Positions 1 to 36,353 of a DNA stretch of 64,000 nt are shown here, piece after piece. Every line of letters starts with the position of its first letter. The stretch's first letter is position 1. Location: contig OZ241883.1 of the NCBI GenBank assembly GCA_965203445.1, positions 864,001 through 928,000 on the forward strand. The letters are read 5' to 3'. The notes under the pieces were generated by a model. That model was not told the DNA's origin. It saw nothing but the letters and a program-made list of their open reading frames with translations, and searched no databases. The stretch is from Candidatus Oxydemutator sp. Its GTDB lineage: Bacteria; Pseudomonadota; Gammaproteobacteria; Poriferisulfidales; Oxydemutatoraceae. Made by a program: the position numbers and the translations under genes.

Positions 1-3000
1 TTCTCGCCGGCGCGCACCGCGACCGACACCGTGGCCGTGCCCGCCGCACCGCGTTCGTCCGTTACCGTCAACTCGAACACCAGCACCGCCGTCGTCGCCA
101 ACTGCTCCGGCGCCGTGAACGTCGCGGTTACCGACTGCGCGTTCGTCAGCGTGACCCTCCTGCCGCCGACCTGACGCCAGTCATACACCAGCATCTCCTC
201 TTCCGCGTCCCTGCCGGCGCCGCTCAAAACCACTATGGCATTCTCGTCCACCACCTGATCATCGCCCGCGTCCGCCACCGGCGCGTCGTTCTCGCCCGGG
301 CGCACCGTGATCACCACCGTGTTCGTCGTCTGATCGCTCAACTGCCGTTCTCTCGGCGACGACAGACCCCGCGTGTCCGTCGCCACCAGCACGAACGTCA
401 GGGTCTCGCTGCTCACCAACTGCACCGGCGCCAGGAACGTCGTGCTGCGCGCTGCGGCGTCGTGCAACGACACCTGACTGCCGCTGATCTGACGCCAGCC
501 ATACACCAGCATCTCGTCCTCCGGATCCCTACCTACGCCGGCCAGCGTTACCACCTCGCCCTCGTCCACCACCTGATCGGCGCCCGCGTCCGCCGTCGGC
601 GCGTCGTTCTCGCCCGCTTGCACCGTGATCACCACCGTCGCCGTCGTCGAACCCGCACCACGCGTGTCCGTTACACGCAGCGCAAACTCCAACTCCTCAT
701 CCGACACCAACTGCATCGGCGCCGTGAAACTCGCGGTTACCAACGTCGCGTTCCTCAACGTAACGCGCACCCCCCGGGTCTGACTCCAGCCATACGCAAG
801 CGCTTCTTTCTCCGGATCGCCACTGGCGCCGCCGTCCAGTATCACCACCGCGCCCTCGGACACCACCTGGGCAAGACCGGCGTCCGCCGTCGGCGCGTCG
901 TTCTCGCCCGGTCGCACCGTGATCACTACCGTGTTCGTCGTCTGACCGCTCAACTGCCGTTCCGCAGGCGACGACAAACCCCGCGTGTCCGTCGCCACCA
1001 GCACGAACGTCAGGGTCTCGCTGCTCGCCAACTGCACCGGCGCCACAAACGTCGTGCTGCGCGCCCCGGCGTCGTGCAACGACACCTGACTGCCGCTGAT
1101 CTGACGCCAGCCATACACCAGCATCTCGTTCTCCGGATCGCTGCCATCGCCGGCCAGCGTTACCAACTGGCCCTCGTCCACCACTTGGTCGGCGCCCGCG
1201 TCCGCCGTCGGCGCGTCGTTCTCGCCCGGCAACACCTCGACCGACACCTCGGCAGACGAACTCGCATCGCGCCTGTCCGTCACCATCAGACGGAACACCA
1301 GCGTCGCCGTCTCCGCCAACTGCACCGGCGCCGTGAACGTCGCCACCGACGACGTCGGATTGCCCAAAACCACGTCGCCACCACCGATCTGTTCCCATCT
1401 GTACGACAATACGCCACCCTCGGCGTCCGTCGCACTGCCGCGCAGCGTGACCTCCGCCCCTTCGTCCACCACTTGATCGGAACCGGCATCCACCACCGGC
1501 GGCGTGTTCGTCTCCAACTCCACCCGAACCACCACCAGCGCGGTCGTCGCCAGACCGCGCTCGTCCGTCGCCCTCAACGCAAATATCAGCACCGTCGCCT
1601 CCGCCAGACCCGACGGCGACGTGAACGTCGCCACCGACGACGTCGCACCCGACAACATCACCGTCGGCTGACCGCTGGTCTGACTCCACTGATACCTCAA
1701 CGTCTCGTTCTCCGGATCAAACGCCACCCCGCGCAGCACCACTTCCTCGCCCTCGCCCACTATCCGGCTCCGCCTCGCGCTCACCACCGGCGCGTCGTTC
1801 GGCCCCGGCAACACCTCGACCGACACCTCGGCCGACGAACTCGCATTGCGCCCGTCCGTCACCGTCAACCGGAACACCAGCGTCGCCGTCTCCGCCAACT
1901 GCATCGGCGCCGTGAACGTCGCGGTTACCGACTGCGCGTTCGTCAGCGTGACTCCCCTGCCGCTGACCTGGCGCCAGTCATACCTCAACTCTTCTCTCTC
2001 CAGATCGCTGCTGCCAGTGCCGTCCAGCGTTACCATCTCGCCCTCGTCCACCACCTGATCATCACCCGCGTCCGCCACCGGCGCGTCGTTCTCGCCCGCG
2101 CGCACCGTGATCACCACCGTGTCCGTGCCCGTCGCGTCGCGCGCGTCCGTTACCGTCAACTCGAACACCAGCGTCGCCGTCGCCGCCAACTGCACCGGCG
2201 CCGTGAACATCGCGGTGGTCGCGGTGGTCGTGGCGCCTACCGTCGCTCCCGTCAGCGCAACTCGACCGCCGCCGATCTGACGCCAGCCATACCGCAACTC
2301 CTCTCTCTCCAGGTCGCTGCTGCCATCGCCGTCCAGCGTTACCATCTCGCCCTCGTCCACCACCTGATCATCGCCCGCGTCCGCCAACGGCGCGTCGTTC
2401 TCGCCCGCGCGCACCGTGATCACCACCGTGTTCGTCGTCTGACCGCTCAACTGCCGTTCCACGGGCGACGACAACCCGCGCGTGTCCGTCACCACCAGCA
2501 CGAACGTCAGGGTCTCGTTGCTCACCAACTGCTCCGGCGCCACAAACGTCGTGCTGCGCGCCCCGGCGTCGTGCAACGACACCTGACTGCCGCTGATCTG
2601 ACGCCAGCCATACACCAGCATCTCGTTCTCCGGATCCCTGCCAACCCCGTCCAGCGTTACCACGTCGCCCTCGTCCACCATCTGGTCGGCGCCCGCGTCC
2701 GCCGTCGGCGCGTCGTTCTCGCCCGCGCGCACCGTGACCGACACCGTGGCCGTGCCCGACGCACCGCGCGCGTCCGTTACCGTCAACTCGAACACCAGCA
2801 CCGCCGTCGTCGCCAGCTGCTCCGGCGCCGTGAACGTCGCGGTTACCGACTGCGCGTTCGTCAGCGTGACCTTCCTGCCCACGGTCTGGCTCCAGCTATA
2901 CCTCAACATCTCTCTCTCCGGATCGCTGCCGGCGCCGCTCAAAACCACCACGGCATTCTCGTCCACCACCTGATCATCGCCCGCGTCCGCCGTCGGCGCG

Positions 3001-6000
3001 TCGTTCTCGCCCGGAACCACCTCGACCACCACCGTGTCCGTGCCCGTCGCGTCGCGCGCGTCCGTTACCGTCAACTCGAACACCAGCGTCGCCGTCTCCG
3101 CCAACTGCACCAGCGCCGTGAACGTCGCGGTTACCGACTGCGCGTTCGTCAGCGTGACTCCCCTGCCGCCGACCTGACGCCAGCCATACGTCAAATCCTC
3201 TCTCTCCAGGTCGCTGCTGCCATCGCCGTCCAGCGTTACCATCTCGCCTTCGTCCACCACCTGATCATCGCCCGCGTCCGCCGTCGGCGCATCGTTCGCG
3301 CCCGGGCGCACCGTGATCACCACCGTGTTCGTCGTCTGACCGCTCAACTGCCGCTCCGCAGGCGACGACAGTCCCCGCGTGTCCGTCGCCACCAGCACGA
3401 ACGTCAGGGTCTCGCTGCTCGCCAACTGCACCGGCGCCAGGAACGTCGTGCTGCGCGCTGCGACGTCGTGCAACGACACCTGACTTCCGCTGATCTGACG
3501 CCAGCCATACACCAGCATCTCGTTCTCCGGATCGCTGCCCGCGCCGGCCAGCGTTACCACGTCGCCTTCGTCCACCACCTGATCGGCGCCCGCGTCCGCC
3601 GTCGGCGCGTCGTTCGGCCCCGGCAACACCTCGACCGACACCTCGGCCGACGAACTCGCATTGCGCCCGTCCGTCACCGTCAGACGGAACACCAGCGTCG
3701 CCGTCTCCGCCAACTGCATCGGCGCCGTGAACGTCGCGGTTACCGACTGCGCGTTCGTCAGCGTGACTCCCCTGCCGCTGACCTGACGCCAGTCATATCC
3801 CAACTCCTCTCTCTCCGGATCGCTGCTGCCGGTGCCGTCCAGCGTTACCACCTCGCCCTCGCCCACCACCTGATCGGCGCCCGCGTCCGCCGTCGGCGCG
3901 TCGTTCTCGCCCGGCACCACCTCGACCACCACCGTGTCCGTGCCCACCGCGTCGCGCGCGTCCGTTACCGTCAACTCGAACACCAGCGTCGCCGTCTCCG
4001 CCAACTGCATCGGCGCCGTGAACGTCGCGGTGGTCCTGGAACCTATCGTCGCTCCCGTCAGCGTTACTCGACCGCCGCCGATCTGACGCCAGCCATACCG
4101 CAACTCCTCTCTCTCCGGATCCCTGCTGCCGTCCCCGTCCAGCGTTACCATCTCGCCCTCGTCCACCACCTGATCATCGCCCGCGTCCGCCAACGGCGCG
4201 TCGTTCTCGCCCGCGCGCACCGTGATCACCACCGTGTTCGTCGTCTGACCGCTCAACTGCCGCTCCCTCGGCGACGACAGTCCCCGCGTGTCCGTCGCCA
4301 CCAGCACGAACGTCAGGGTCTCGTCGCTCACCAACTGCTCCGGCGCCACAAACGTCGTGCTGCGCGCTGCGGCGTCGTGCAACGACACCATGCTGCCGCT
4401 GATCTGACGCCAGCCATACACCAGCATCTCGTTCTCCGGATCGCTGCCAACCCCGTCCAGCGTTACCACGTCGCCCTCGTCCACCATCTGGTCGGCGCCC
4501 GCGTCCGCCACCGGCGCATCGTTCGCGCCCGGGCGCACCGTGATCACCACCGTGTTCGTCGTATCATCGCTCAACTGCCGTCCCACGGGCGACGATAGAC
4601 CGCGCGTGTCCGTCGCCACCAGCACGAACGTCAAGGTCTCGCTGCTCACCAACTGCACCGGCGCCACAAACGTCGTGCTGCGCGCTGCGGCGTCGTGCAA
4701 CGACACCTGACTGCCGCTGATCTGACGCCAGCCATACACCAGCATCTCGTTCTCCGGATCCCTGCCTACGCCGTCCAGCGTCACCACGTCGCCCTCGTCC
4801 ACCACCTGGTCGGCGCCCGCGTCCGCCACCGGTGCGTCGTTCTCGCCCGGCAACACCTCGACCGACACCTCGGCAGACGAACTCGCATCGCGCCCGTCCG
4901 TCACCGTCAGACGGAACACCAGCGTCGCCGTCTCCGCCAACTGCATCGGCGCCGTGAACGTCGCCACCGCCACCATCGGATTCCCCAAACCCACGTCGCC
5001 ACCACCGATCTGTTCCCATCTGTACGACAATACGCCGCCCTCGGTGTCCGTCGCACTGCCGCGCAGCGTGACCTCCGCCCCTTCGTCCACCACTTGATCG
5101 GAACCGGCATCCACCACCGGCGGCGTGTTCGTCCCCAACTCCACCCGAACCACCACCCGCGCGGTCGTCGCCAGACCGCGCTCGTCCGTCGCTCTCAACG
5201 CAAATCCCAGCACCGCCGCCTCCGCCAGACCCGACGGCGACGTGAACGTCGCCACCGACGACGTCGCACCGGACAACACCACCGTCGGCTGACCGCTGGT
5301 CTGGCTCCATTGATACCTCAACATCTCGTTCTCCGGATCAAACGCCACCCCGCGCAGCACCACTTCCTCGCCCTCGCCCACTATCTGCTCCCGCCCCGCG
5401 CTCACCACCGGCGCGTCGTTCGGCCCCGGCAACACCTCGACCGACACCTCGGCCGACGAACTCGCATTGCGCCCGTCCGTCACCGTCAGACGGAACACCA
5501 GCGTCGCCGTCTCCGCCAACTGCATCGGCGCCGTGAACGTCGCGGTTACCGACTGCGCGTTCGTCAGCGTGACTCCCCTGCCGCTGACCTGACGCCAGTC
5601 ATATCCCAACTCCTCTCTCTCCGGATCCCTGCTGCCGGTGCCGTCCAGCGTTACCATCTCGCCCTCGCCCACCACCTGATCGGCGCCCGCGTCCGCCGTC
5701 GGCGCGTCGTTCTCGCCCGGCACCACCTCGACCACCACCGTGTCCGTGCCCACCGCGTCGCGCGCGTCCGTTACCGTCAACTCGAACACCAGCGTCGCCG
5801 TCTCCGCCAACTGCATCGGCGCCGTGAACGTCACGGTGGTCCTGGAACCTATCGTCGCTCCCGTCAGCGTTACTCGACCGCCGCCGATCTGACGCCAGCC
5901 ATACCGCAACTCCTCTCTCTCCGGATCCCTGCTGCCGTCCCCGTCCAGCGTTACCATCTCGCCCTCGTCCACCACCTGATCATCGCCCGCGTCCGCTATC

Positions 6001-29380: not shown

Positions 29381-31423
29381 ATGCCGGAAGACGTCCCGTC
29401 CACTCGACCCGCGTCCCCGAGACTTTCGGCCACGTTCGCCGCGACGATGCTGGCCGTCGCCCTGCCCACGTTCATGGTCATGGTCACGGCCACGACGCAG
29501 GCGGCGGCGCAGGCGGCGGAGACGTCGGGAACCACGATACGGGCGCGCGTGTTTTTGCAGGGCGCGTACGACGGGGCCGGGCGCCCGATGAAGACCACGT
29601 ACCTGAAATACCTGCCGGCTGAACAGCCGTACGGCGGCGTGCCGTGGCGCGCGCCGGCAACCACCGTGCCGCGCGTTGCGACGAACGCGGACGGTTTCGG
29701 TCTGGCGGCGGTCACCGCGACGATAGTGGACTGGGTGCTGGTCGAGTTGCGCACCACGGCGCGCGGCGCCAGTGCCGACGCGGGTGCGGGCGCGGCACCG
29801 CTGGCCAGCCGCGCCGCCTTGCTGCTCAGCAACGGCGACGTCGTCGGCGTCGACACGAGCGCCTCGGCGCCCGCGGCGGTGGCGCGAACCGACGGCGTGC
29901 ATTTCGCCGCGGCGATAGACGACGCGCAAGACCTGTACGTGCTGATTCATCACCGCAACCACATGTCCATCATGTCGCCCGCTCCGGTGGCCGCCTGCGC
30001 CGACGACGGCGGCTATTGTATTGACTTCACGCGCGCGCAGTCTTACCGCAACGGGCAGTATGCGCTCCGCGGCGGGCGCGGTGAGCGCGGTGAGCGCGGC
30101 GGCCCATTCGCAATGTACGCGGGCGACACCAACCGCGACGGCGTGATTGACGACGCCGACCGGCGATCCATCCGCGCGCACAACCTGACGACCATCGGCG
30201 CCGACCACTACGACGAACCCGACGCCGCCGGGCGCTACGTCATAGACTCCGACCTCGACTTCGACGGCGACGTCCTTTCGGCGGACGGATTCTTCATCGT
30301 CGGTCGAGACGCCGTAAGAGGCGGGCTGTCGAGGCCTTCCAGCGACGTCGCAGGCTTGGCCGCCGAAGTCGAAATCTGCCGCAATCCGGCGGCCGCCTTC
30401 GCCACGACGCGCTCGGCGACGAACGAACACGGCGATTACTGGGTGGCCTACCGGTGCCGGGAAGTTTGCGACGACTGGCGCCAATGCCTGCAACGCAGCG
30501 GCTCCCGACAGGATCTGGCCTTTGTGGTGGATAACATGGGCGGGCGCCTCAGATTCTCGGTGGATCGCGGCGGCGACGAAGTGCTGTATTTGCAACGCGG
30601 CGTCGGCGGCATCTCATTCATGCCGTTTCTGCCCGACCAGATCGAGCGCGCATCGAGCGCGGGCGTCGTGATGGTGGCCTGGGAGTCGGGTTTCCACAGT
30701 TGGGGGTGGTTCACGCGCACGGCGCAGGCGGCGACGCGGGTGCCGCGCGTGACCAGGCGCATCGCCGCCATCATCGCCTGGGTGCACGAAAACCTGGCGG
30801 GCGACGCGCGGCTCGGCACGGTCGGTTGCAGCATGGGCGCGCAGGCGACCTTCGGCGCGGTCTATTGGCACGGGATAGACGAAGCGGTGGACTACCAGCT
30901 GTTCATCGGCGGCCCGGCGCTCTGGGACATCAACGCCGGATGCGGGCGGCGCACCTACGCCTCGGGCCATTGCGACCGCGACCCCGGCATCGCCTGCACC
31001 AGCGACGCGGATTGCCGCGCCCTCGGCGCGAACAGCCGCTGCGACAGGCTCGGCCCGATATACCGCCGCAACGTCTGGCTGTACGAACAAGTCGTCAACC
31101 ACGTCCACGCCACCACCGCCTGCGACGTCTCGCAAGCGCAAAGCCGCGCGCCGCTTGCGTCTTTTGACGAAAGCGGTTTCGCGTTCACCGACGGCGACTG
31201 GGATTTCGACCATCCGGTGGACTTTGCGATAGACCTGCAACACCGGCGCGGCGCCGACGGCGACGAGGATTGGGCGCTCAGCGACATGATGCGATCATTC
31301 AACGGCGTTACGTCGCAAGCCGGCCACGCCAAACGCTGGCTCACCAAAAGCAATGCCCGGCATTGCAACGCGGCCCACGACGGCCGCGCGCTCGACCTCA
31401 TCCGGGCATGGATGGGGCCGTAA
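29381..31423 (+). CDS. Secreted protein: dockerin/EF-hand-like N-terminal domain fused to an alpha/beta-hydrolase-like domain
   Basis: Hydrophobic leader; VFLQGAYD...VDWVLVELR...HRNH block; Ca-loop motifs GDTNRDGVIDDAD and SDLDFDGDVLSAD; nucleophile elbow GCSMG; Cys-rich insert. Confidence 0.6.
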   Translation: MPEDVPSTRPASPRLSATFAATMLAVALPTFMVMVTATTQAAAQAAETSGTTIRARVFLQGAYDGAGRPMKTTYLKYLPAEQPYGGVPWRAPATTVPRVATNADGFGLAAVTATIVDWVLVELRTTARGASADAGAGAAPLASRAALLLSNGDVVGVDTSASAPAAVARTDGVHFAAAIDDAQDLYVLIHHRNHMSIMSPAPVAACADDGGYCIDFTRAQSYRNGQYALRGGRGERGERGGPFAMYAGDTNRDGVIDDADRRSIRAHNLTTIGADHYDEPDAAGRYVIDSDLDFDGDVLSADGFFIVGRDAVRGGLSRPSSDVAGLAAEVEICRNPAAAFATTRSATNEHGDYWVAYRCREVCDDWRQCLQRSGSRQDLAFVVDNMGGRLRFSVDRGGDEVLYLQRGVGGISFMPFLPDQIERASSAGVVMVAWESGFHSWGWFTRTAQAATRVPRVTRRIAAIIAWVHENLAGDARLGTVGCSMGAQATFGAVYWHGIDEAVDYQLFIGGPALWDINAGCGRRTYASGHCDRDPGIACTSDADCRALGANSRCDRLGPIYRRNVWLYEQVVNHVHATTACDVSQAQSRAPLASFDESGFAFTDGDWDFDHPVDFAIDLQHRRGADGDEDWALSDMMRSFNGVTSQAGHAKRWLTKSNARHCNAAHDGRALDLIRAWMGP

Positions 31424-31600
31424 ATTCGGCCCACCCTCACCCAGAGGGAGAAGTTGTCCGCGGGCCCGTAATGTAACCCTCTCCCCAATTCTTGAAACAG
31501 GTGGGCTGATAAAACGGGTTTTAGAAATTCCCTGAACTCCAGTATGGGCGCCTGCCTCCGCTGCGATCGAACCACCTCGAAGTTATTGCAGTACAATAAT

Positions 31601-31780
31601 GGGAACTATATACGATTGTATGCAATCGTATCCATTTGACGTTTCACAGACCGTGCCCTGTCGGATAAAAGTTCCTTCAGGGTCTTACCGCCATCTCCAC
31701 GTCCGGCAGCCCCGTTCCCGGAGGCCTTCAAACTCATTACGACCTCACCCCGCTTCTTGATGTTCAGAGCAGCGTTCCAG
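31601..31780 (-). ncRNA. Putative omega-RNA scaffold overlapping tnpB 3' end
   Basis: TnpB omega-RNAs are known to overlap the ORF 3' end. A perfect 9-bp hairpin ATACGATTG-TATG-CAATCGTAT (31610-31631) is present only at this end. 5' boundary is a guess. Confidence 0.5.
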
Positions 31781-32874
31781 TCCGCATTATCCCGATGACC
31801 GCAATCAACACAAACAAATAACGATTGCGATACTCTGTTCTTCTTGTTTTTGCACTTGCACTTGTTGCACGTTATACTCGTGTACTGAGCAGGCACATAA
31901 TTAACTTGGGTCTTGTAACCCAAATACTGTTCCATCTTATACCAGTCAGTCTTCAGTATCCCTTTGTTCAGGCCCGACTTGGCCTTCACATTCCTGCCGG
32001 GGACGACAGCCGTGCCCTTGGCACTTCTTGTCATCCCCTTCGTATTTAAATCCTCCAGATGCACTACAGAGTATCTCTCCGATACTTCTTTGGATACATG
32101 ATGGCACCAGTTAACTCTCTTCTGTCTTATCTTCCTGCACGTTATCGCATGGGAATGCTTGGCCCTCAAGTATCTGTTGGATGGCTTCACCTTGTGCTTT
32201 CTGCTGCCACACTTCCGCCTCGCCATCATCCTCTGATAACGGCGACGACGCGCCTCTAATAAAGTAGTATCAGGCCCTCGATATACAATCCCATCCGAAC
32301 AAGTAATCTGACCCACATTCCTATCTATGCCCACTGAATAGTACTCCCGTTTAATCTCTTTCTGTTCCACGGCATAAACTACATACGCATACCAATTCCC
32401 GCATTCCCTTTTAACCGTGCCCGACACGGGCTTTGCATCCGGATATGGATTATGACCAAGCAACAGAAACTCGCCTATCTTGGCGATGTGCAAATGGCGT
32501 CCCCTTATTCGGAACAAGCCAGATACAAGAGGGAAACTCTCATGATGTACATACCTTGCATGAAACCTCGGCAGCCCGCCCTTCTTGTCATAGAACTTCT
32601 TGTATGCAATCTCTATGGGCTTCAAAGATGATTTCACTATGTTGGCCGAGTATTCCTGCAACCAAGGTTCGCAGTGGCGACGTAGCAAAGTGAATTGCTT
32701 GCCCAGCGTGTAATACCATGGCTTGCACCTTCCATACGCCAGATACTCGTCCCGTAACTTCCCCACAAAGTGGTTCCATACAAACCGACAAGCACCCGCC
32801 AATCCCGCCAACTTGCGGGCTTTGGCCTGCGTACCGGGATGCACTCTGTAGCGGATTGTTCTATGAACCTTCAT
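31606..32874 (-). CDS. tnpB: RNA-guided endonuclease TnpB
   Basis: N-terminal YRVHP...GACRFVWN; RuvC-I GIDRN, RuvC-II LEDL, zinc finger CNKC...CVDC, RuvC-III ADWNAALNI; stop TAG lies inside the TIR. Confidence 0.93.
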   Translation of the reverse strand: MKVHRTIRYRVHPGTQAKARKLAGLAGACRFVWNHFVGKLRDEYLAYGRCKPWYYTLGKQFTLLRRHCEPWLQEYSANIVKSSLKPIEIAYKKFYDKKGGLPRFHARYVHHESFPLVSGLFRIRGRHLHIAKIGEFLLLGHNPYPDAKPVSGTVKRECGNWYAYVVYAVEQKEIKREYYSVGIDRNVGQITCSDGIVYRGPDTTLLEARRRRYQRMMARRKCGSRKHKVKPSNRYLRAKHSHAITCRKIRQKRVNWCHHVSKEVSERYSVVHLEDLNTKGMTRSAKGTAVVPGRNVKAKSGLNKGILKTDWYKMEQYLGYKTQVNYVPAQYTSITCNKCKCKNKKNRVSQSLFVCVDCGHRDNADWNAALNIKKRGEVVMSLKASGNGAAGRGDGGKTLKELLSDRARSVKRQMDTIAYNRI

Positions 32875-32936
32875 TGATATTTCTATTTTAATTTGCTTGT
32901 CAAGAAATTATCATAAATTATTGGATTATCTGCATT

Positions 32937-34049
32937 TTATTTGCTTCTTTGCATACAATGGTATATAATTCCCACAATAATTCTACACGCTATCAGGCGA
33001 CCAGAACTTGTACGGGGCCACCACATTCTGGACAAATGGGGTAGTTGTTTTTGGATGGCTTGGCACGGGGTGATATTCCCCAGGCTCCGGTGCGGGCGCT
33101 CGCCGTTGTAGCGTTCCAGATACGTGAACAACGCATCGTTGAAGGCATACAAATCATCAAACAATCTGTCTTCCCGGTAGTCCACGAACTCCTCCTGCAC
33201 GGTTCTGTTGAAGCGCTCGCATAATGCGTTCATCTTCGGACAACGCGGGTAAGTGTAACAGTGTTCTATACCCGCACGCTTCAGGTATTCGTCGAACTCT
33301 CCCTGATACTCGCTGCCGTTGTCCGTCAGTACTTTCTCGATGCGCCCCGGAAACACTTCGCACACCAAGCGCATGAAACACGCCGCGTCGCGACTGCTGG
33401 CGCGACGACTGGCCAACGCCAACGCAAAGCGACTGCTGTGATCCGTCGCCGTGAAGATATGGCGGCGACTGTTGTTCACGAAGCGCACTATCGTATCAAC
33501 CGCCACGCAATGGCCTGCATGCCCGGCATGGAAGTCTTTGCCCAAGCGCGGGCGCGGTCGGCGCTTGAACTCCTTGCGCCGACCGCGACTGTCCAGGCGA
33601 ACCGCCACCTTGCGCATCTTGTCCGGGGCATCCGCTATCAGGCGGCCTATCGTGCGCTCCCCGGGACATCTCACCCCGCGCTCGGCGCACCACGCAACCA
33701 GCAGCACGTGAACCTTCTCCTTGCCTAAATTCGGGTGGCGCTCGCGCAAGCGTCTGATCTCTTGGACCACCGCCACCGGCCACCGCCGCACCCGCCTGTT
33801 CTTGGGCGCCTTGCTGACGTCGTGCAACCCACTGAGACCGCCTTCGCGGTGGCGCTTGCGCCACGCATACAGGGTGCTGCGCGAAACCCCGAAGGCGTCT
33901 TGGGTTGCAGGCAAGCCATGATTATCCCAGAATATCAGGGCGTCGTATTTGCGTTCGGCACTCGTTGCCATGATAGCCTCCATTCGGTTTGCATAGGAAG
34001 CTATTTTACGCAACCCTGGGACGCGGTAGCCGACGTGCTTTATTTGCAT
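32937..34049 (-). CDS. IS481-like DDE transposase (HTH + integrase core)
   Basis: GVSRSTLYAWRKR HTH; VAVDT, LTDNGSEY, CERFNRTVQEE; ORF reads through the IR, stop outside the element. Confidence 0.9.
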   Translation of the reverse strand: MQIKHVGYRVPGLRKIASYANRMEAIMATSAERKYDALIFWDNHGLPATQDAFGVSRSTLYAWRKRHREGGLSGLHDVSKAPKNRRVRRWPVAVVQEIRRLRERHPNLGKEKVHVLLVAWCAERGVRCPGERTIGRLIADAPDKMRKVAVRLDSRGRRKEFKRRPRPRLGKDFHAGHAGHCVAVDTIVRFVNNSRRHIFTATDHSSRFALALASRRASSRDAACFMRLVCEVFPGRIEKVLTDNGSEYQGEFDEYLKRAGIEHCYTYPRCPKMNALCERFNRTVQEEFVDYREDRLFDDLYAFNDALFTYLERYNGERPHRSLGNITPCQAIQKQLPHLSRMWWPRTSSGRLIACRIIVGIIYHCMQRSK

Positions 34050-34104
34050 GTCGGCTACCTTTCTGCGGCTAAGATATTGTCCAGAATGTTTCTGGCCCTA
34101 TACA
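33009..34104 (-). mobile_element. IS481-like insertion sequence (1,096 bp)
   Basis: TGT...ACA ends; IRs TGTACGGGGCCACCACATTCTGGACA and TGTATAGGGCCAGAAACATTCTGGACA; 5-bp TSD GAACT (33004-33008, 34105-34109). Confidence 0.9.
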
Positions 34105-34125
34105 GAACTGACTGGCAGAAAAATA

Positions 34126-34782
34126 ATGGCAAAATCAAAGCTTACCGTTGACGCACTCAAAACCGAAGCCGGGACATTTGCCGTGGCCGAGTCAACGCAC
34201 CATGAACCCAGCCTTTTCGGTGTAACCGACGGCAAGGCCATCGGCACGTATTTTGAGCACAAATTCCGCGGCCGTCTCCGCAAAAGATTTGACTTTGCAG
34301 AGGGGTCATCGGCCAAAGGAATTGACTTTCCAGGCCTTGGCGTGGACGTGAAAGTCACAAGCGTCAAACAACCTCAGTCCTCCTGCCCGTACGAGTCCGC
34401 CAGACAGAAAATATTCGGACTCGGCTACTCCATTCTGGTTTTTGCGTACGACAAGACGGAGGATCCGGCGACCCGGACCGGGCAACTGAACGTCCGACAC
34501 GCCATCTTCATCGAAAAAGAGCAGACGGCCGATTTTCAGACGACGACGGGCATTCGCAAGATACTCGAAAATCAAGGGAACAAGGATGACTTGCTCTCCT
34601 TTCTTCAGGAGCGCATGCTACCCGTCGACGAGATCGAGGCGCTCAGGATTGCCGACGACTTGCTGAAAACTCCTCCAAAAATCGGCTACCTGACCATATC
34701 CAATGCGTTGCAGTGGAGATTGCAGTATCGCCGCGTCATAGACGCCGCAGATGCCGCGCCCGGCGTAACCAGGCTCAAGTAA
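34126..34782 (+). CDS. Type II restriction endonuclease (NspV-like family, tentative)
   Basis: GVTDGKAIGTY...GIDFP...VDVKVTS (D-x-D-x-K) QPQSSCP; paired with downstream MTase; ATG 34126. Confidence 0.7.
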   Translation: MAKSKLTVDALKTEAGTFAVAESTHHEPSLFGVTDGKAIGTYFEHKFRGRLRKRFDFAEGSSAKGIDFPGLGVDVKVTSVKQPQSSCPYESARQKIFGLGYSILVFAYDKTEDPATRTGQLNVRHAIFIEKEQTADFQTTTGIRKILENQGNKDDLLSFLQERMLPVDEIEALRIADDLLKTPPKIGYLTISNALQWRLQYRRVIDAADAAPGVTRLK

Positions 34783-34784
34783 AA

Positions 34785-36353
34785 ATGTCTCGGAAACAGC
34801 CGGCCGCGGTCGAGTTCGGCGACTTTCAGACGCCGCCGGATCTTGCGCGGCGCGTTTGTGCGGTCGTAGCACGTTCCGGTTTCCGCCCGGCCTCTATCGT
34901 CGAACCAAGCTGCGGGCGCGGCGCCTTCCTGCAGGCGGCCCTTAAGGCGTTTCCCGACGCCCGCCGTTTTCTCGGCGCGGATCGAAATCCGGGACACGTG
35001 CAAGCAGCCAGGACGCTCCTCGCCCATGCCGACGGCAACGGGCGGATACAGATAATACAGAGCGACTTTTTCGACGCCGACTGGACGACCCTCACGGCCG
35101 GCCTGCCGAAACCGCTCCTGATCGTGGGCAATCCGCCTTGGGTAACCAATGCCGCCCTGGGGGCCTTGGGGAGTACGAATCTTCCGAAAAAAGCCAATCA
35201 GGACGGACTTCGAGGTATAGCCGCGCTGACCGGGAAATCAAACTTCGACATATCGGAGTGGATGTTGCGGGAGAATCTTGCGTGGCTCGCCGCGGCCTCG
35301 GGAACATTGGCCGTTCTCTGCAAAACGACGGTGGCGAGAAGGGTGCTCAGCCACGCATGGTCGAACAAACTGCCAATCGCGTCCGCCGCAATGTATCGCA
35401 TTGACGCGAAACTCCACTTTGGCGCCGCGGTCGACGCGTGCCTGCTGATCGTGCGCTGCGGCCCGGGCGCGGCATCAATGGACTGCCGCGATTACCCTAC
35501 TCTCGAAGCCGCAACGCCCGGCACCTCCTTCGGGCTTCGGGACGGCACCTTGATCGCCGATATTCGTCGCTACGAGCAGTGGCACGACCTGCTCGGGCGC
35601 GGCCTCAGCGGATGGCGCTCGGGAATCAAACACGATTGCAGCAAGGTCTTTGAGCTCGACCAGCATAAGACCGGATACGAAAACGGCTTGGGGACAAAAG
35701 TGCAAATCGAAGCCGACGTGGTCTTCCCTCTGCTCAAAAGTTCGGACATAGCCGCGAGAAAACGCCCTCGCAAATGGATGCTCGTACCGCACAAGACGAT
35801 GATCGCATCGCCCGAGAAACTCCGGCGCCAGGCTCCCAAGGCGTGGCGGTATCTCGTTGCGAACGCGCCCCTCGTGGAAAAGCGCCGCAGCACGATCTAT
35901 CGCAACCGGCCGCGCTTCTCGATCTTCGGAGTGGGGGAGTATTCCTTTTCGCGCTGGAAAGTCGCGATCTCAGGTTTGTACAAAAAACTCGACTTCGTCG
36001 AGGTCCCTCCCTTTCAGAATCGGCCGGTTGTATTCGACGACACGTGTTATTTTTTCGCCTGCAATTCGGCGCAGGAGTGCCGGACGTTGCAGCGGCTGGT
36101 CGCGTCCCGGCCGGCCCAGGAATTCTGGTCGGCCTTCGTGTTCTGGGACGCCAAGCGCCCGATCACGGCACAAATACTCAACCTTCTCGATTTTGCGGCC
36201 GTGGCGCGCGTGCTGGGCGTACGATCCGACGTCGCGCGCGCCCTTGCCGACCGGCAATTGGTGCAATACACCGAAAAACCCTGCCAACAAATGCTCATCA
36301 GAGAGCACCGCCGAAAGAACCCCGTCCATCCAAACGTCACCGACTACGACTAA
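34785..36353 (+). CDS. N6-adenine DNA methyltransferase (gamma-type), cognate of the REase
   Basis: EFGDFQTP, EPSCGRGAF (motif I), GNPPW (motif IV); ATG 2 bp after REase stop. Confidence 0.85.
   Translation: MSRKQPAAVEFGDFQTPPDLARRVCAVVARSGFRPASIVEPSCGRGAFLQAALKAFPDARRFLGADRNPGHVQAARTLLAHADGNGRIQIIQSDFFDADWTTLTAGLPKPLLIVGNPPWVTNAALGALGSTNLPKKANQDGLRGIAALTGKSNFDISEWMLRENLAWLAAASGTLAVLCKTTVARRVLSHAWSNKLPIASAAMYRIDAKLHFGAAVDACLLIVRCGPGAASMDCRDYPTLEAATPGTSFGLRDGTLIADIRRYEQWHDLLGRGLSGWRSGIKHDCSKVFELDQHKTGYENGLGTKVQIEADVVFPLLKSSDIAARKRPRKWMLVPHKTMIASPEKLRRQAPKAWRYLVANAPLVEKRRSTIYRNRPRFSIFGVGEYSFSRWKVAISGLYKKLDFVEVPPFQNRPVVFDDTCYFFACNSAQECRTLQRLVASRPAQEFWSAFVFWDAKRPITAQILNLLDFAAVARVLGVRSDVARALADRQLVQYTEKPCQQMLIREHRRKNPVHPNVTDYD

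Follow-up and report, generated by a model that had tools for sequence, protein, structure and literature searches.

A tnpB-only element with the ends of IS1595-family transposons in a Candidatus Oxydemutator genome

Here we describe a 1373-bp element in which the gene for TnpB, an RNA-guided nuclease, lies alone between the inverted ends of a DDE transposon. The stretch of DNA analysed, called the window throughout, is 64,000 nucleotides long and comes from Candidatus Oxydemutator sp. (GenBank assembly GCA_965203445.1, contig OZ241883.1, positions 864,001 to 928,000 of the forward strand); plain coordinates are window positions, and those that begin with C1 refer to the complete genome, which is 2.38 Mb long and consists of one contig (C1). 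The element occupies positions 31601-32973. Judging by its sequence and that of its relatives, it is likely a non-autonomous member of a DDE transposon lineage of the IS1595 family, and its whole cargo is likely a working TnpB-omegaRNA module. Its ends and its 8-bp target-site duplication (TSD) match those of the transposase-bearing IS1595 elements in this and related genomes, and it is probably moved by an IS1595 transposase encoded elsewhere in the genome.

The structure of the element can be read directly from the letters. Two terminal inverted repeats (TIRs) of 25 nt, identical at 23 of 25 positions, form its ends: GGGAACTATATACGATTGTATGCAA at 31601-31625, at the 3′ end of tnpB, and a repeat at 32949-32973, at the 5′ end of tnpB, whose reverse complement is GGGAATTATATACCATTGTATGCAA. 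Directly outside them stand two exact copies of the TSD ACAATAAT, one on the tnpB-3′ side at 31593-31600 and one on the tnpB-5′ side at 32974-32981. An earlier model-made note on the same letters (the original prediction) had described these repeats, the duplication, tnpB as the only gene inside, and a stop codon within a TIR, and our reading agrees with it throughout: the sole long open reading frame (ORF) between the ends is tnpB, at 31606-32874 on the minus strand, and its stop codon at 31606-31608 falls within the TIR. In a repeat search no inverted repeat of the region was longer than the TIR pair, and the 25-nt TIR pattern, allowing up to 3 mismatches, occurs in the 2.38-Mb genome at the two window sites only, with 0 hits for a reversed control. 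The element has 47% G+C, against 63.6% for the genome. Contigs from three runs of another study (X3-X5, labelled sponge metagenome) carry a copy of the element at 90-99% likeness, and the match runs from 31600/31601 to 32974, beyond which the flanks differ. Because these contig matches end there and give way to other flanks, the element boundaries are fixed independently, and they are real.

The window copy is one of a family. A protein search found at least 13 full-length tnpB paralogues in the genome, plus fragments, at 58-100% amino-acid identity. Ends could be paired for 12 of the genome's own tnpB elements, which are 786-1377 bp long and all begin GGGAAYTAT (12/12). The original prediction held that other copies should share the ends and differ in their duplications, as they do: seven of the 12 have exact 8-bp TSDs, all different (CTTTTTTG, AATAGTAG, ACAATAAT, AAACATAA, TAATTTTT, CTATTCTG and CAAAGATA), two match at 7/8, one at 6/8, and two at 3-4/8. 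Two extra full-length copies lie at C1:430970-432296, with the exact TSD AAAATGTT, and near C1:1431141, with 6/8. The 12-nt end motif GGGAATTATRTA, with at most 1 mismatch, is found 33 times on the forward and 36 times on the reverse strand of the genome, while the reversed control gives 0 and 1. In 8 of the 12 elements the ORF ends 5 nt short of the element's last base, at a TAA within ...TATATAATTCCC, and the spacing from TIR to start codon is 74 nt in the window copy and 14-36 nt in the other copies. Truncated copies also occur, at C1:247602-248387 and as fragments at C1:2222918 and C1:1480642.

The original prediction had also proposed a search for the empty allele, and here the outcome was divided. 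For the window site none was found: no contig of X1 or X3-X5 joins the flanks across the element, three same-genus genomes (G001-G003) lack an orthologue of the left flank, and the right flank has just 27 bp of unique DNA before an IS481-like element begins, whose other copies yield no empty site because this unique DNA intervenes. For the copy at C1:174463-175774 a paralogous empty site does exist, in that its flanks with one TSD copy are colinear with uninterrupted IS481-like copies (92/115), and the duplication is thereby supported. The genome contains many solo ends as well, and a miniature inverted-repeat transposable element (MITE) of 163 bp and 30% G+C at C1:113341-113503 with ends GGGAATTATGTA as in the tnpB elements; considered as a stand-alone omegaRNA, this MITE was rejected, as it lacks the core motif of the RNA scaffold described below.

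Ends of the ISNwi1 type in the IS1595 family read 'ggnnatTAT' and are accompanied by an 8-bp duplication. A transposase of this family with the same ends, which the original prediction had suggested looking for, is indeed present. It is the single IS1595-family transposase of the genome (PF12762, DDE_Tnp_IS1595, 151 bits; NF033547, 205.9 bits against a cut-off of 75; Zn_ribbon_IS1595 present), and it sits in a 2616-bp element at C1:1978350-1980965 with perfect 26-nt TIRs, GGGAATTATATACTTAAATCTACAAA, and the exact 8-bp TSD ATCAGAAA. Adjoining the 314-aa transposase, that element carries a passenger, a 436-aa N6_N4 DNA methylase fused to an HNH nuclease domain (locus L013 spans C1:1978503-1981940). 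Transposase-only IS1595 elements of 1246-1410 bp in related genomes begin GGGAAYTAT too, 18 of them with exact 8-bp TSDs. The outer 12-13 nt of the TIR are common to all, the inner 12 nt fall into subtypes, and the same inner subtypes are found on transposase elements and on tnpB elements, for example ...AACTTGACAG, ...ATTCTGCACA, ...GTTTGACAA and ...AAATCTACA. Among 31 genomes compared (the window's own and 30 related), PF12762 occurs in 19 and this TnpB in 12; the transposase is found in 11 of the 12 genomes that have the TnpB versus 8 of the 19 that do not, genomes that are kin and not independent. The window element, which holds only tnpB, is a non-autonomous derivative and not an insertion sequence (IS) in the strict sense.

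Could the inverted ends be incidental, with an ordinary IS200/IS605 or IS607 tnpB element nested in an unrelated MITE or dependent on a TnpA acting in trans? In favour of such an origin, classical IS200/IS605 elements with an adjoining tnpA are the nearest annotated relatives on plasmids, at 31-34% identity. The rest of the evidence points the other way. Neither a Y1 TnpA (PF01797) nor a serine recombinase (PF00239) was matched in the complete one-contig genome, and the same searches found these families in 6/14 and 12/14 control genomes. There is no room for a nested IS605 or IS607 end, because only 74 nt separate the TIR from the ATG (14-36 nt in the other copies) and the stop codon lies in the other TIR; complete nested ends are among the observations that the original prediction had named as refuting it. 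TIRs with an 8-bp TSD recur, moreover, in every subclade of the TnpB tree presented below. With its symmetric ends, its 8-bp TSD, and a genome free of matches to both recombinase families, the window element falls outside IS200/IS605 and IS607, and we regard an ordinary element of either kind, nested or moved in trans, as close to refuted and extremely improbable.

The TnpB protein itself is 422 amino acids (aa) long, and the original prediction's description of an intact-looking gene is borne out by profiles and alignment alike. It matches NCBIfam guided_TnpB (NF040570) at 174 bits, against a cut-off of 100, and Pfam Cas12f1-like_TNB (50.8 bits) and HTH_OrfB_IS605 (28.5 bits) over their cut-offs; OrfB_IS605, at 22.8 bits, is under its cut-off. 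The best solved full-length relative is ISDra2 TnpB (8H1J/8BF8; E 1.5e-19, residues 10-387). The D of vgiDrnv, the E of vhlEdln, and the D of hrDnaDwNAA sit in conserved blocks aligned to ISDra2 TnpB, and we take these three residues to be its catalytic D/E/D. A CxxC...CxxC zinc finger is present. By alignment, then, the protein has what characterizes a TnpB: a RuvC-like D/E/D triad, a C-terminal zinc finger, a length of about 400 aa, and an N-terminal HTH/WED region. Fanzors are TnpB homologues of eukaryotes or giant viruses that have extensions of their own or a rearranged active site. The window protein is an ordinary ISDra2-like prokaryotic TnpB, with the glutamate in the canonical position, and not a Fanzor; no Fanzor-titled entry is found among its 17 PDB sequence matches at E<=0.001, and all of its close relatives in the relative scan are bacterial. 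The original prediction had spoken of a bacterial Fanzor-like capture. The DDE-mobilised design that it had in mind is supported, while the term Fanzor-like holds as an analogy only. Among viral contigs the best relative is 27% identical, and no phage vector was seen with this query. One stretch of the protein, GMTRSAKGTAVVPGRNVKAKSGLNK at residues ~285-305, past the RuvC-II glutamate, recurs nearly motif for motif in PDB 9j09_A ('Transposase', 540 aa) and is not common to ISDra2 TnpB.

One alternative is that tnpB is inert cargo, hitch-hiking on an IS1595-type element to which RNA-guided activity is irrelevant. A transposase alone should be enough for movement, transposase-only and MITE forms share the ends, and several of the genome's own tnpB copies are truncated. 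Against this stands the state of the full-length genes. The D/E/D triad and the zinc finger are kept in 11/11 full-length own-genome copies aligned, and the ratio of nonsynonymous to synonymous substitution rates (dN/dS) is 0.09-0.24 over paralogues down to 58% identity (35/45 pairs, those with unsaturated dS), with 0.12-0.18 for the window gene versus its paralogues; by these measures TnpB is under purifying selection with an intact active site. Three further observations, all taken up below, also speak against inert cargo: an RNA scaffold conserved with compensatory changes, an orientation-specific bias in the flanks of the target sites that is missing in transposase-only elements, and the upkeep of the module across several phyla. 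We therefore consider it very unlikely that tnpB is inert, and return to the working module.

The second part of that module is a predicted RNA. An alignment (A1) was made of the last 150 nt of 33 diverse elements, with the conserved block aligned, and RNAalifold gave two helices with compensatory changes, to which one helix was added, for a count of 14 pairs in all. In these pairs 95.7% of cells are standard-paired, versus 80.1 +/- 1.2 in shuffled alignments (0/500 shuffles as high); compensatory changes on both sides occur in 7/14 pairs, and double-change cells number 65 versus 24.7. When the partners are slid by 1-3 columns as a control, pairing falls to 33-49%. A second inner helix (A1 columns 94-97 with 102-103 and 140-141) was dropped, since it is not kept across clades. 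In the window, the covariation in A1 and a terminal hairpin place the omegaRNA-like structured scaffold at 31601-31726 on the minus strand, where it overlaps the 3′ end of tnpB and reaches the last base of the element.

The terminal hairpin (31610-31618/31623-31631) is formed in part by the transposon end itself: its 3′ arm is the inner TIR, so that the repeat at 31601-31625 contains the stop codon of the gene and the last arm of its RNA. Across 48 related elements, the hairpin at the 3′ end has a mean minimum free energy of -10.1 kcal/mol versus -5.0 at the equivalent 5′ end, and of 15 inner-TIR bases a mean of 9.4 are paired at the 3′ end versus 5.9 at the 5′ end; because the elements share ancestry, Wilcoxon p-values for these contrasts come out too favourable. 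The sequence of the hairpin follows the TIR subtype, and the upstream arm has therefore co-varied with the transposase-binding end. On the 3′ side of the hairpin come the invariant ...TATAATTCCC, then the TSD, then unrelated flank. A TnpB omegaRNA with a scaffold that stops where its element stops would have its parts in this order, and we call the structure omegaRNA-like on that account. The predicted guide, at 31581-31600 on the minus strand, would be transcribed outward from the scaffold and comprise the TSD (31593-31600 as its first 8 nt) and the adjoining flank, as suggested by conservation that stops at the element end and by the TnpB/omegaRNA architecture set out in PMC10691335 and PMC10711439. 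An Rfam search of window positions 31300-33300 at E<=1 gave no match.

If the guide begins with the duplicated bases, the target-adjacent motif (TAM) of an empty allele should lie across the insertion site, directly outside the TSD at the tnpB-5′ end, and it is there that the flanks are biased. The candidate TAM of the window copy, at 32982-32984 on the minus strand, reads AGA on the tnpB strand. In a discovery set of 36 tnpB-element sites with a TSD of at least 7/8, the base at -1 is a purine in 34/36 (25 G and 9 A), the other two sites having T and none C; at -3 A occurs in 21, at -2 T in 17 and G in 11, and at the mirrored +8 C occurs in 3 and T in 7. Because the motif was chosen after looking, a hold-out set was drawn from 20 further places and the two extra own-genome copies; 10 of these 22 passed the filters, and one (L181) was dropped as a duplicate of L033, which left n=9. 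All nine have a purine at -1 (G 3/9, A 6/9), and T stands at -2 in 6/9. Over all sites the -1 base is a purine in 43/45, versus a pyrimidine at the mirrored +8 in 15/45 (Fisher 3e-10). The 19 transposase-only IS1595 sites (18 from relatives and the own-genome element) have a purine at -1 in 10/19 and a pyrimidine at +8 in 6/19, and tnpB sites differ from them at -1 (Fisher 1e-4). The preference seems to vary between clades, with TG where the titles name Poriferihabitans, TA for one family of relatives, and RG or RA for the present genome. As the two ends are almost identical, a DDE transposase would be expected to ignore orientation; the asymmetry of the flanks therefore points to selection connected with tnpB.

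The same arrangement extends over a wide range of bacteria. When one genome per species was scanned, 80 loci were obtained, most of them, by record title, in metagenome-assembled genomes (MAGs). Sponge-symbiont names (Candidatus Porisulfidus, Candidatus Poriferihabitans) account for many of the titles, and others are Arenicellales, Caldilineaceae, Anaerolineales, Thermodesulfobacteriota, Rhodothermales, Bacteroidota, Spirochaetia and Dadabacteria. The TnpBs of tnpB-only elements with the same ends range down to about 35% identity and across several phyla. An end-finding script was run on 68 bacterial loci, leaving out 12: L037, L073 and L091, which are cut or short, and L097-L105, of which six are distant archaeal loci and three are bacterial matches that are short or partial. 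In 42/68 loci the TIRs reach 20/28 or more, and among these 42 the TSD is exact (8/8) in 23, 7/8 in 4, 6/8 in 5 and at most 5/8 in 10. In a quick, midpoint-rooted maximum-likelihood tree, 70 ingroup TnpBs split from 10 outgroups (two IS200/IS605 TnpBs adjoining tnpA, five archaeal and three viral proteins) with a Shimodaira-Hasegawa-like approximate likelihood ratio test (SH-aLRT) support of 100. TIR-bearing members stand in every subclade with the phyla mixed, so the original prediction's question of whether relatives share TIR and TSD is answered in the affirmative, and the tree is compatible with a single capture at the base of the clade. The archaeal relatives, at 25-28% identity, have no TnpA neighbour among the 8 neighbouring ORFs scanned. 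One of them (L101, 26% identity, at 3938-5218) adjoins a divergent DDE_Tnp_1 (PF01609) gene at 2711-3889 on the minus strand, and it may be another DDE-TnpB association with a different family.

How might such a module serve a DDE transposon? In the mechanism that we propose, an IS1595 transposase acting in trans would bind the inverted ends and, cutting the target with an 8-bp stagger, insert the element. Processing of the tnpB transcript would yield an omegaRNA whose scaffold ends at the element's last base, and the guide would consist of the duplicated 8 bp and the adjoining flank, giving as target ATTATTGT and the following 12 nt. In the empty allele, this target would be preceded by the 2-3 nt that lie outside the TSD at the other end of the element, and these purine-biased bases (roughly R-T/G-R, varying by clade) would act as the TAM. 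TnpB would then cut empty alleles and spare the occupied site; self-cutting would be avoided because the occupied site has ...TTCCC before the same target. Repair from the occupied chromosome copy would restore or spread the insertion. Homing or retention, and mobilisation in trans, are what we infer from these patterns.

An active TnpB-omegaRNA might instead do something other than homing: it might aid the DDE transposase, say through breaks or marks in the DNA, keep out rival DNA with the flank sequence, or regulate host genes. Several possible roles of TnpB are listed in the main text of Altae-Tran et al. 2023 (PMC10691335), homing here is a matter of inference, and DDE excision already makes a break, as noted in a 2026 review (PMC13565253). 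A TldR-like repressor is nevertheless unlikely because the active site is intact, the flank bias falls exactly at the position at which an empty allele would require a TAM, and the guides differ from insertion to insertion and are therefore a poor fit to a fixed host target. On balance a non-homing role is unlikely. Homing thus remains our preferred function for the module, and it can be carried a step further. IS1595-family DDE transposons may have recruited a whole bacterial clade of TnpBs to act as a gene drive for cut-and-paste elements. The last stem of the omegaRNA would be built from the transposase-binding end repeat, with RNA and transposase site co-evolving by subtype; the guide would start with the TSD, and the TAM would be taken from across the insertion site, such that only insertions by a purine-rich 2-3 nt home and persist, and the module would have spread between phyla. 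We offer this larger scheme tentatively, as a possibility whose chances fall somewhat short of even. If it is true, TIR transposons would have captured TnpB in prokaryotes much as they captured Fanzor in eukaryotes, and the transposase family involved would be one that has yet to be named in print as a partner of TnpB.

Several observations weigh against a working, homing module on IS1595 ends. The TIR of the window copy agrees with that of the resident transposase element at only 17/25 positions, and the best match to it on a transposase element, at 21/25, is in a related genome (L114); the cognate transposase of the window copy may therefore be a different, now absent IS1595 relative. By eye, the ends nearest to those of the resident transposase element are found at C1:2133905-2135281, with about 23/25 positions alike in a hand count. 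A related genome (G030) has 16 TnpB matches, for example L022 and L196, yet no PF12762 at E<=1e-10, and its tnpB elements may be orphaned or moved by some other enzyme. The transposase lies inside 0 of about 100 tnpB loci examined, with remnants only ~2 kb off in L035 and L049, so it is the shared ends that argue for mobilisation in trans. No good TIR pair was obtained with the script in 26/68 loci, some of which showed ends with a cruder script, and the 10/42 good-TIR loci with a TSD match of at most 5/8 may reflect decay or script error. Part of the conservation of the scaffold comes from the protein, because the scaffold overlaps coding sequence, and no RNA run is listed as containing the element. 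The TAM motif was picked post hoc; G as the TAM base at -1, at 25/36 in the discovery set, fell to 3/9 in the hold-out and was rejected in favour of a purine, and the window copy itself has A there. Finally, as the 2026 review (PMC13565253) argues, the excision of a cut-and-paste DDE element already leaves a double-strand break, and what such an element gains from TnpB is therefore harder to see than in the case of IS200/IS605.

The surroundings of the element add some further features. Between the tnpB start and the 5′ TIR lies an AT-rich leader of 74 nt (32875-32948, minus strand) with one sigma-70-like site at 32914-32885, a weak signal, given 3 such sites in the region versus 2.4 expected. 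The IS481-like element lies at 33009-34104, 27 bp from the tnpB element, and contains a 370-aa rve-type ORF that matches NF033577 at 190.6 bits, under the cut-off of 224; the genome has further full copies, two at 98% and one at 85%, and many fragments. An ORF call at 32937-34049 overruns the end of the IS481-like element into the tnpB element by chance. Beyond, the stretch at 34048-36353 is lower in G+C and holds two overlapping ORFs, one of 244 aa that matches nothing in Pfam and one of 546 aa whose methyltransferase matches are weak; this stretch beside the IS elements may be a restriction-modification or defence island. Directly left of the tnpB element, a repeat of ~53 nt at 31434-31486 recurs at 13 or more other genome sites with 77-93% identity; it is also covered by contigs of runs labelled sponge metagenome, and it looks like a repetitive extragenic palindromic (REP) sequence. 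For the 680-aa ORF at 29381-31423, which lies upstream of the element, Pfam gave no match at E<=0.01.

The original prediction left open whether such an element had been reported before, and in principle it has. Altae-Tran et al. (2023, PNAS; PMC10691335) describe in their main text six DDE-associated branches of TnpB (DDE-1 to DDE-6), all with inverted terminal repeats and with tnpB 3′ ends at most 250 bp from the transposon end, as well as solo TnpBs flanked by the ends of transposase-bearing elements and moved in trans; the sole family named in that main text is IS630 (DDE-6). In the 2026 review (PMC13565253) the DDE partners of TnpB are given as ISL2, IS630 and IS1031, and such associations are described as rare among prokaryotes. 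That DDE transposons with inverted ends can contain TnpB is thus already in print, with an IS1595 partner unnamed there: the term 'IS1595' occurs 0 times in the main texts of these two papers, and a literature search, which covered neither subscription journals nor supplements, found no paper linking TnpB to IS1595 ends. The clade described here may be one of the six DDE branches. The novelty is therefore modest: the element adds a well-documented example, with IS1595 as the partner, to a kind known in print since 2023, and it introduces no new principle. What is added is a cognate autonomous element in the same complete genome, an RNA scaffold fused to the end repeat, and a hold-out-tested flank bias at the predicted TAM.

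These additions nonetheless have some value of their own. The nuclease familiar from HUH 'peel-and-paste' elements is found here in the service of a DDE element whose insertions duplicate 8 bp, and the many independent insertions in one complete genome suggest that TnpB-omegaRNA modules are portable between transposition chemistries. One mobile module is documented across phyla, largely in MAGs titled as sponge symbionts. It leads to testable predictions of how a guide is defined with inverted ends and a TSD, namely a scaffold that finishes within the TIR, a guide whose first bases are the TSD, and a TAM on the far side, and it offers compact TnpB variants of 406-428 aa with predicted short purine-type TAMs.

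Set beside the known systems, the window element shares some traits with each and differs in others. Like the DDE-associated TnpBs of the 2023 paper (PMC10691335, main text), it is a prokaryotic TnpB within an inverted-repeat transposon, with the 3′ end of the gene near the transposon end; here, however, the transposase is inside no tnpB element examined, and the partner elements carry no tnpB. With passenger-carrying IS1595 elements it shares GG-initiated ends, an AT-rich 8-bp TSD and, in its autonomous relatives, a DDE_Tnp_IS1595 transposase with a zinc ribbon; the resident autonomous copy has a methylase-HNH fusion as passenger, whereas the window element is without a transposase and its cargo is an RNA-guided nuclease, with an RNA scaffold that appears fused to the end repeat. 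With IS200/IS605 elements (ISDra2, and the tnpB-only IS1341 type) it has in common the protein architecture and active site, and its predicted omegaRNA-like scaffold likewise extends from within the 3′ end of the gene to the boundary, but in place of subterminal hairpin ends and a Y1 TnpA it has inverted ends, an 8-bp TSD and a predicted guide that starts with the duplicated bases. A further parallel in design is eukaryotic: Yoon et al. 2023 (PMC10711439) report Fanzor1 and Fanzor2* in non-autonomous TIR/TSD elements that encode the nuclease alone, with the TIR part of the guide-RNA scaffold, just as the window element is a nuclease-only TIR/TSD element whose TIR lies within its predicted scaffold. 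In the Fanzor elements the TSD is reported to be in the scaffold, whereas the 8-bp TSD here is variable and more likely part of the guide, and the host in our case is a bacterium and the protein a canonical TnpB.

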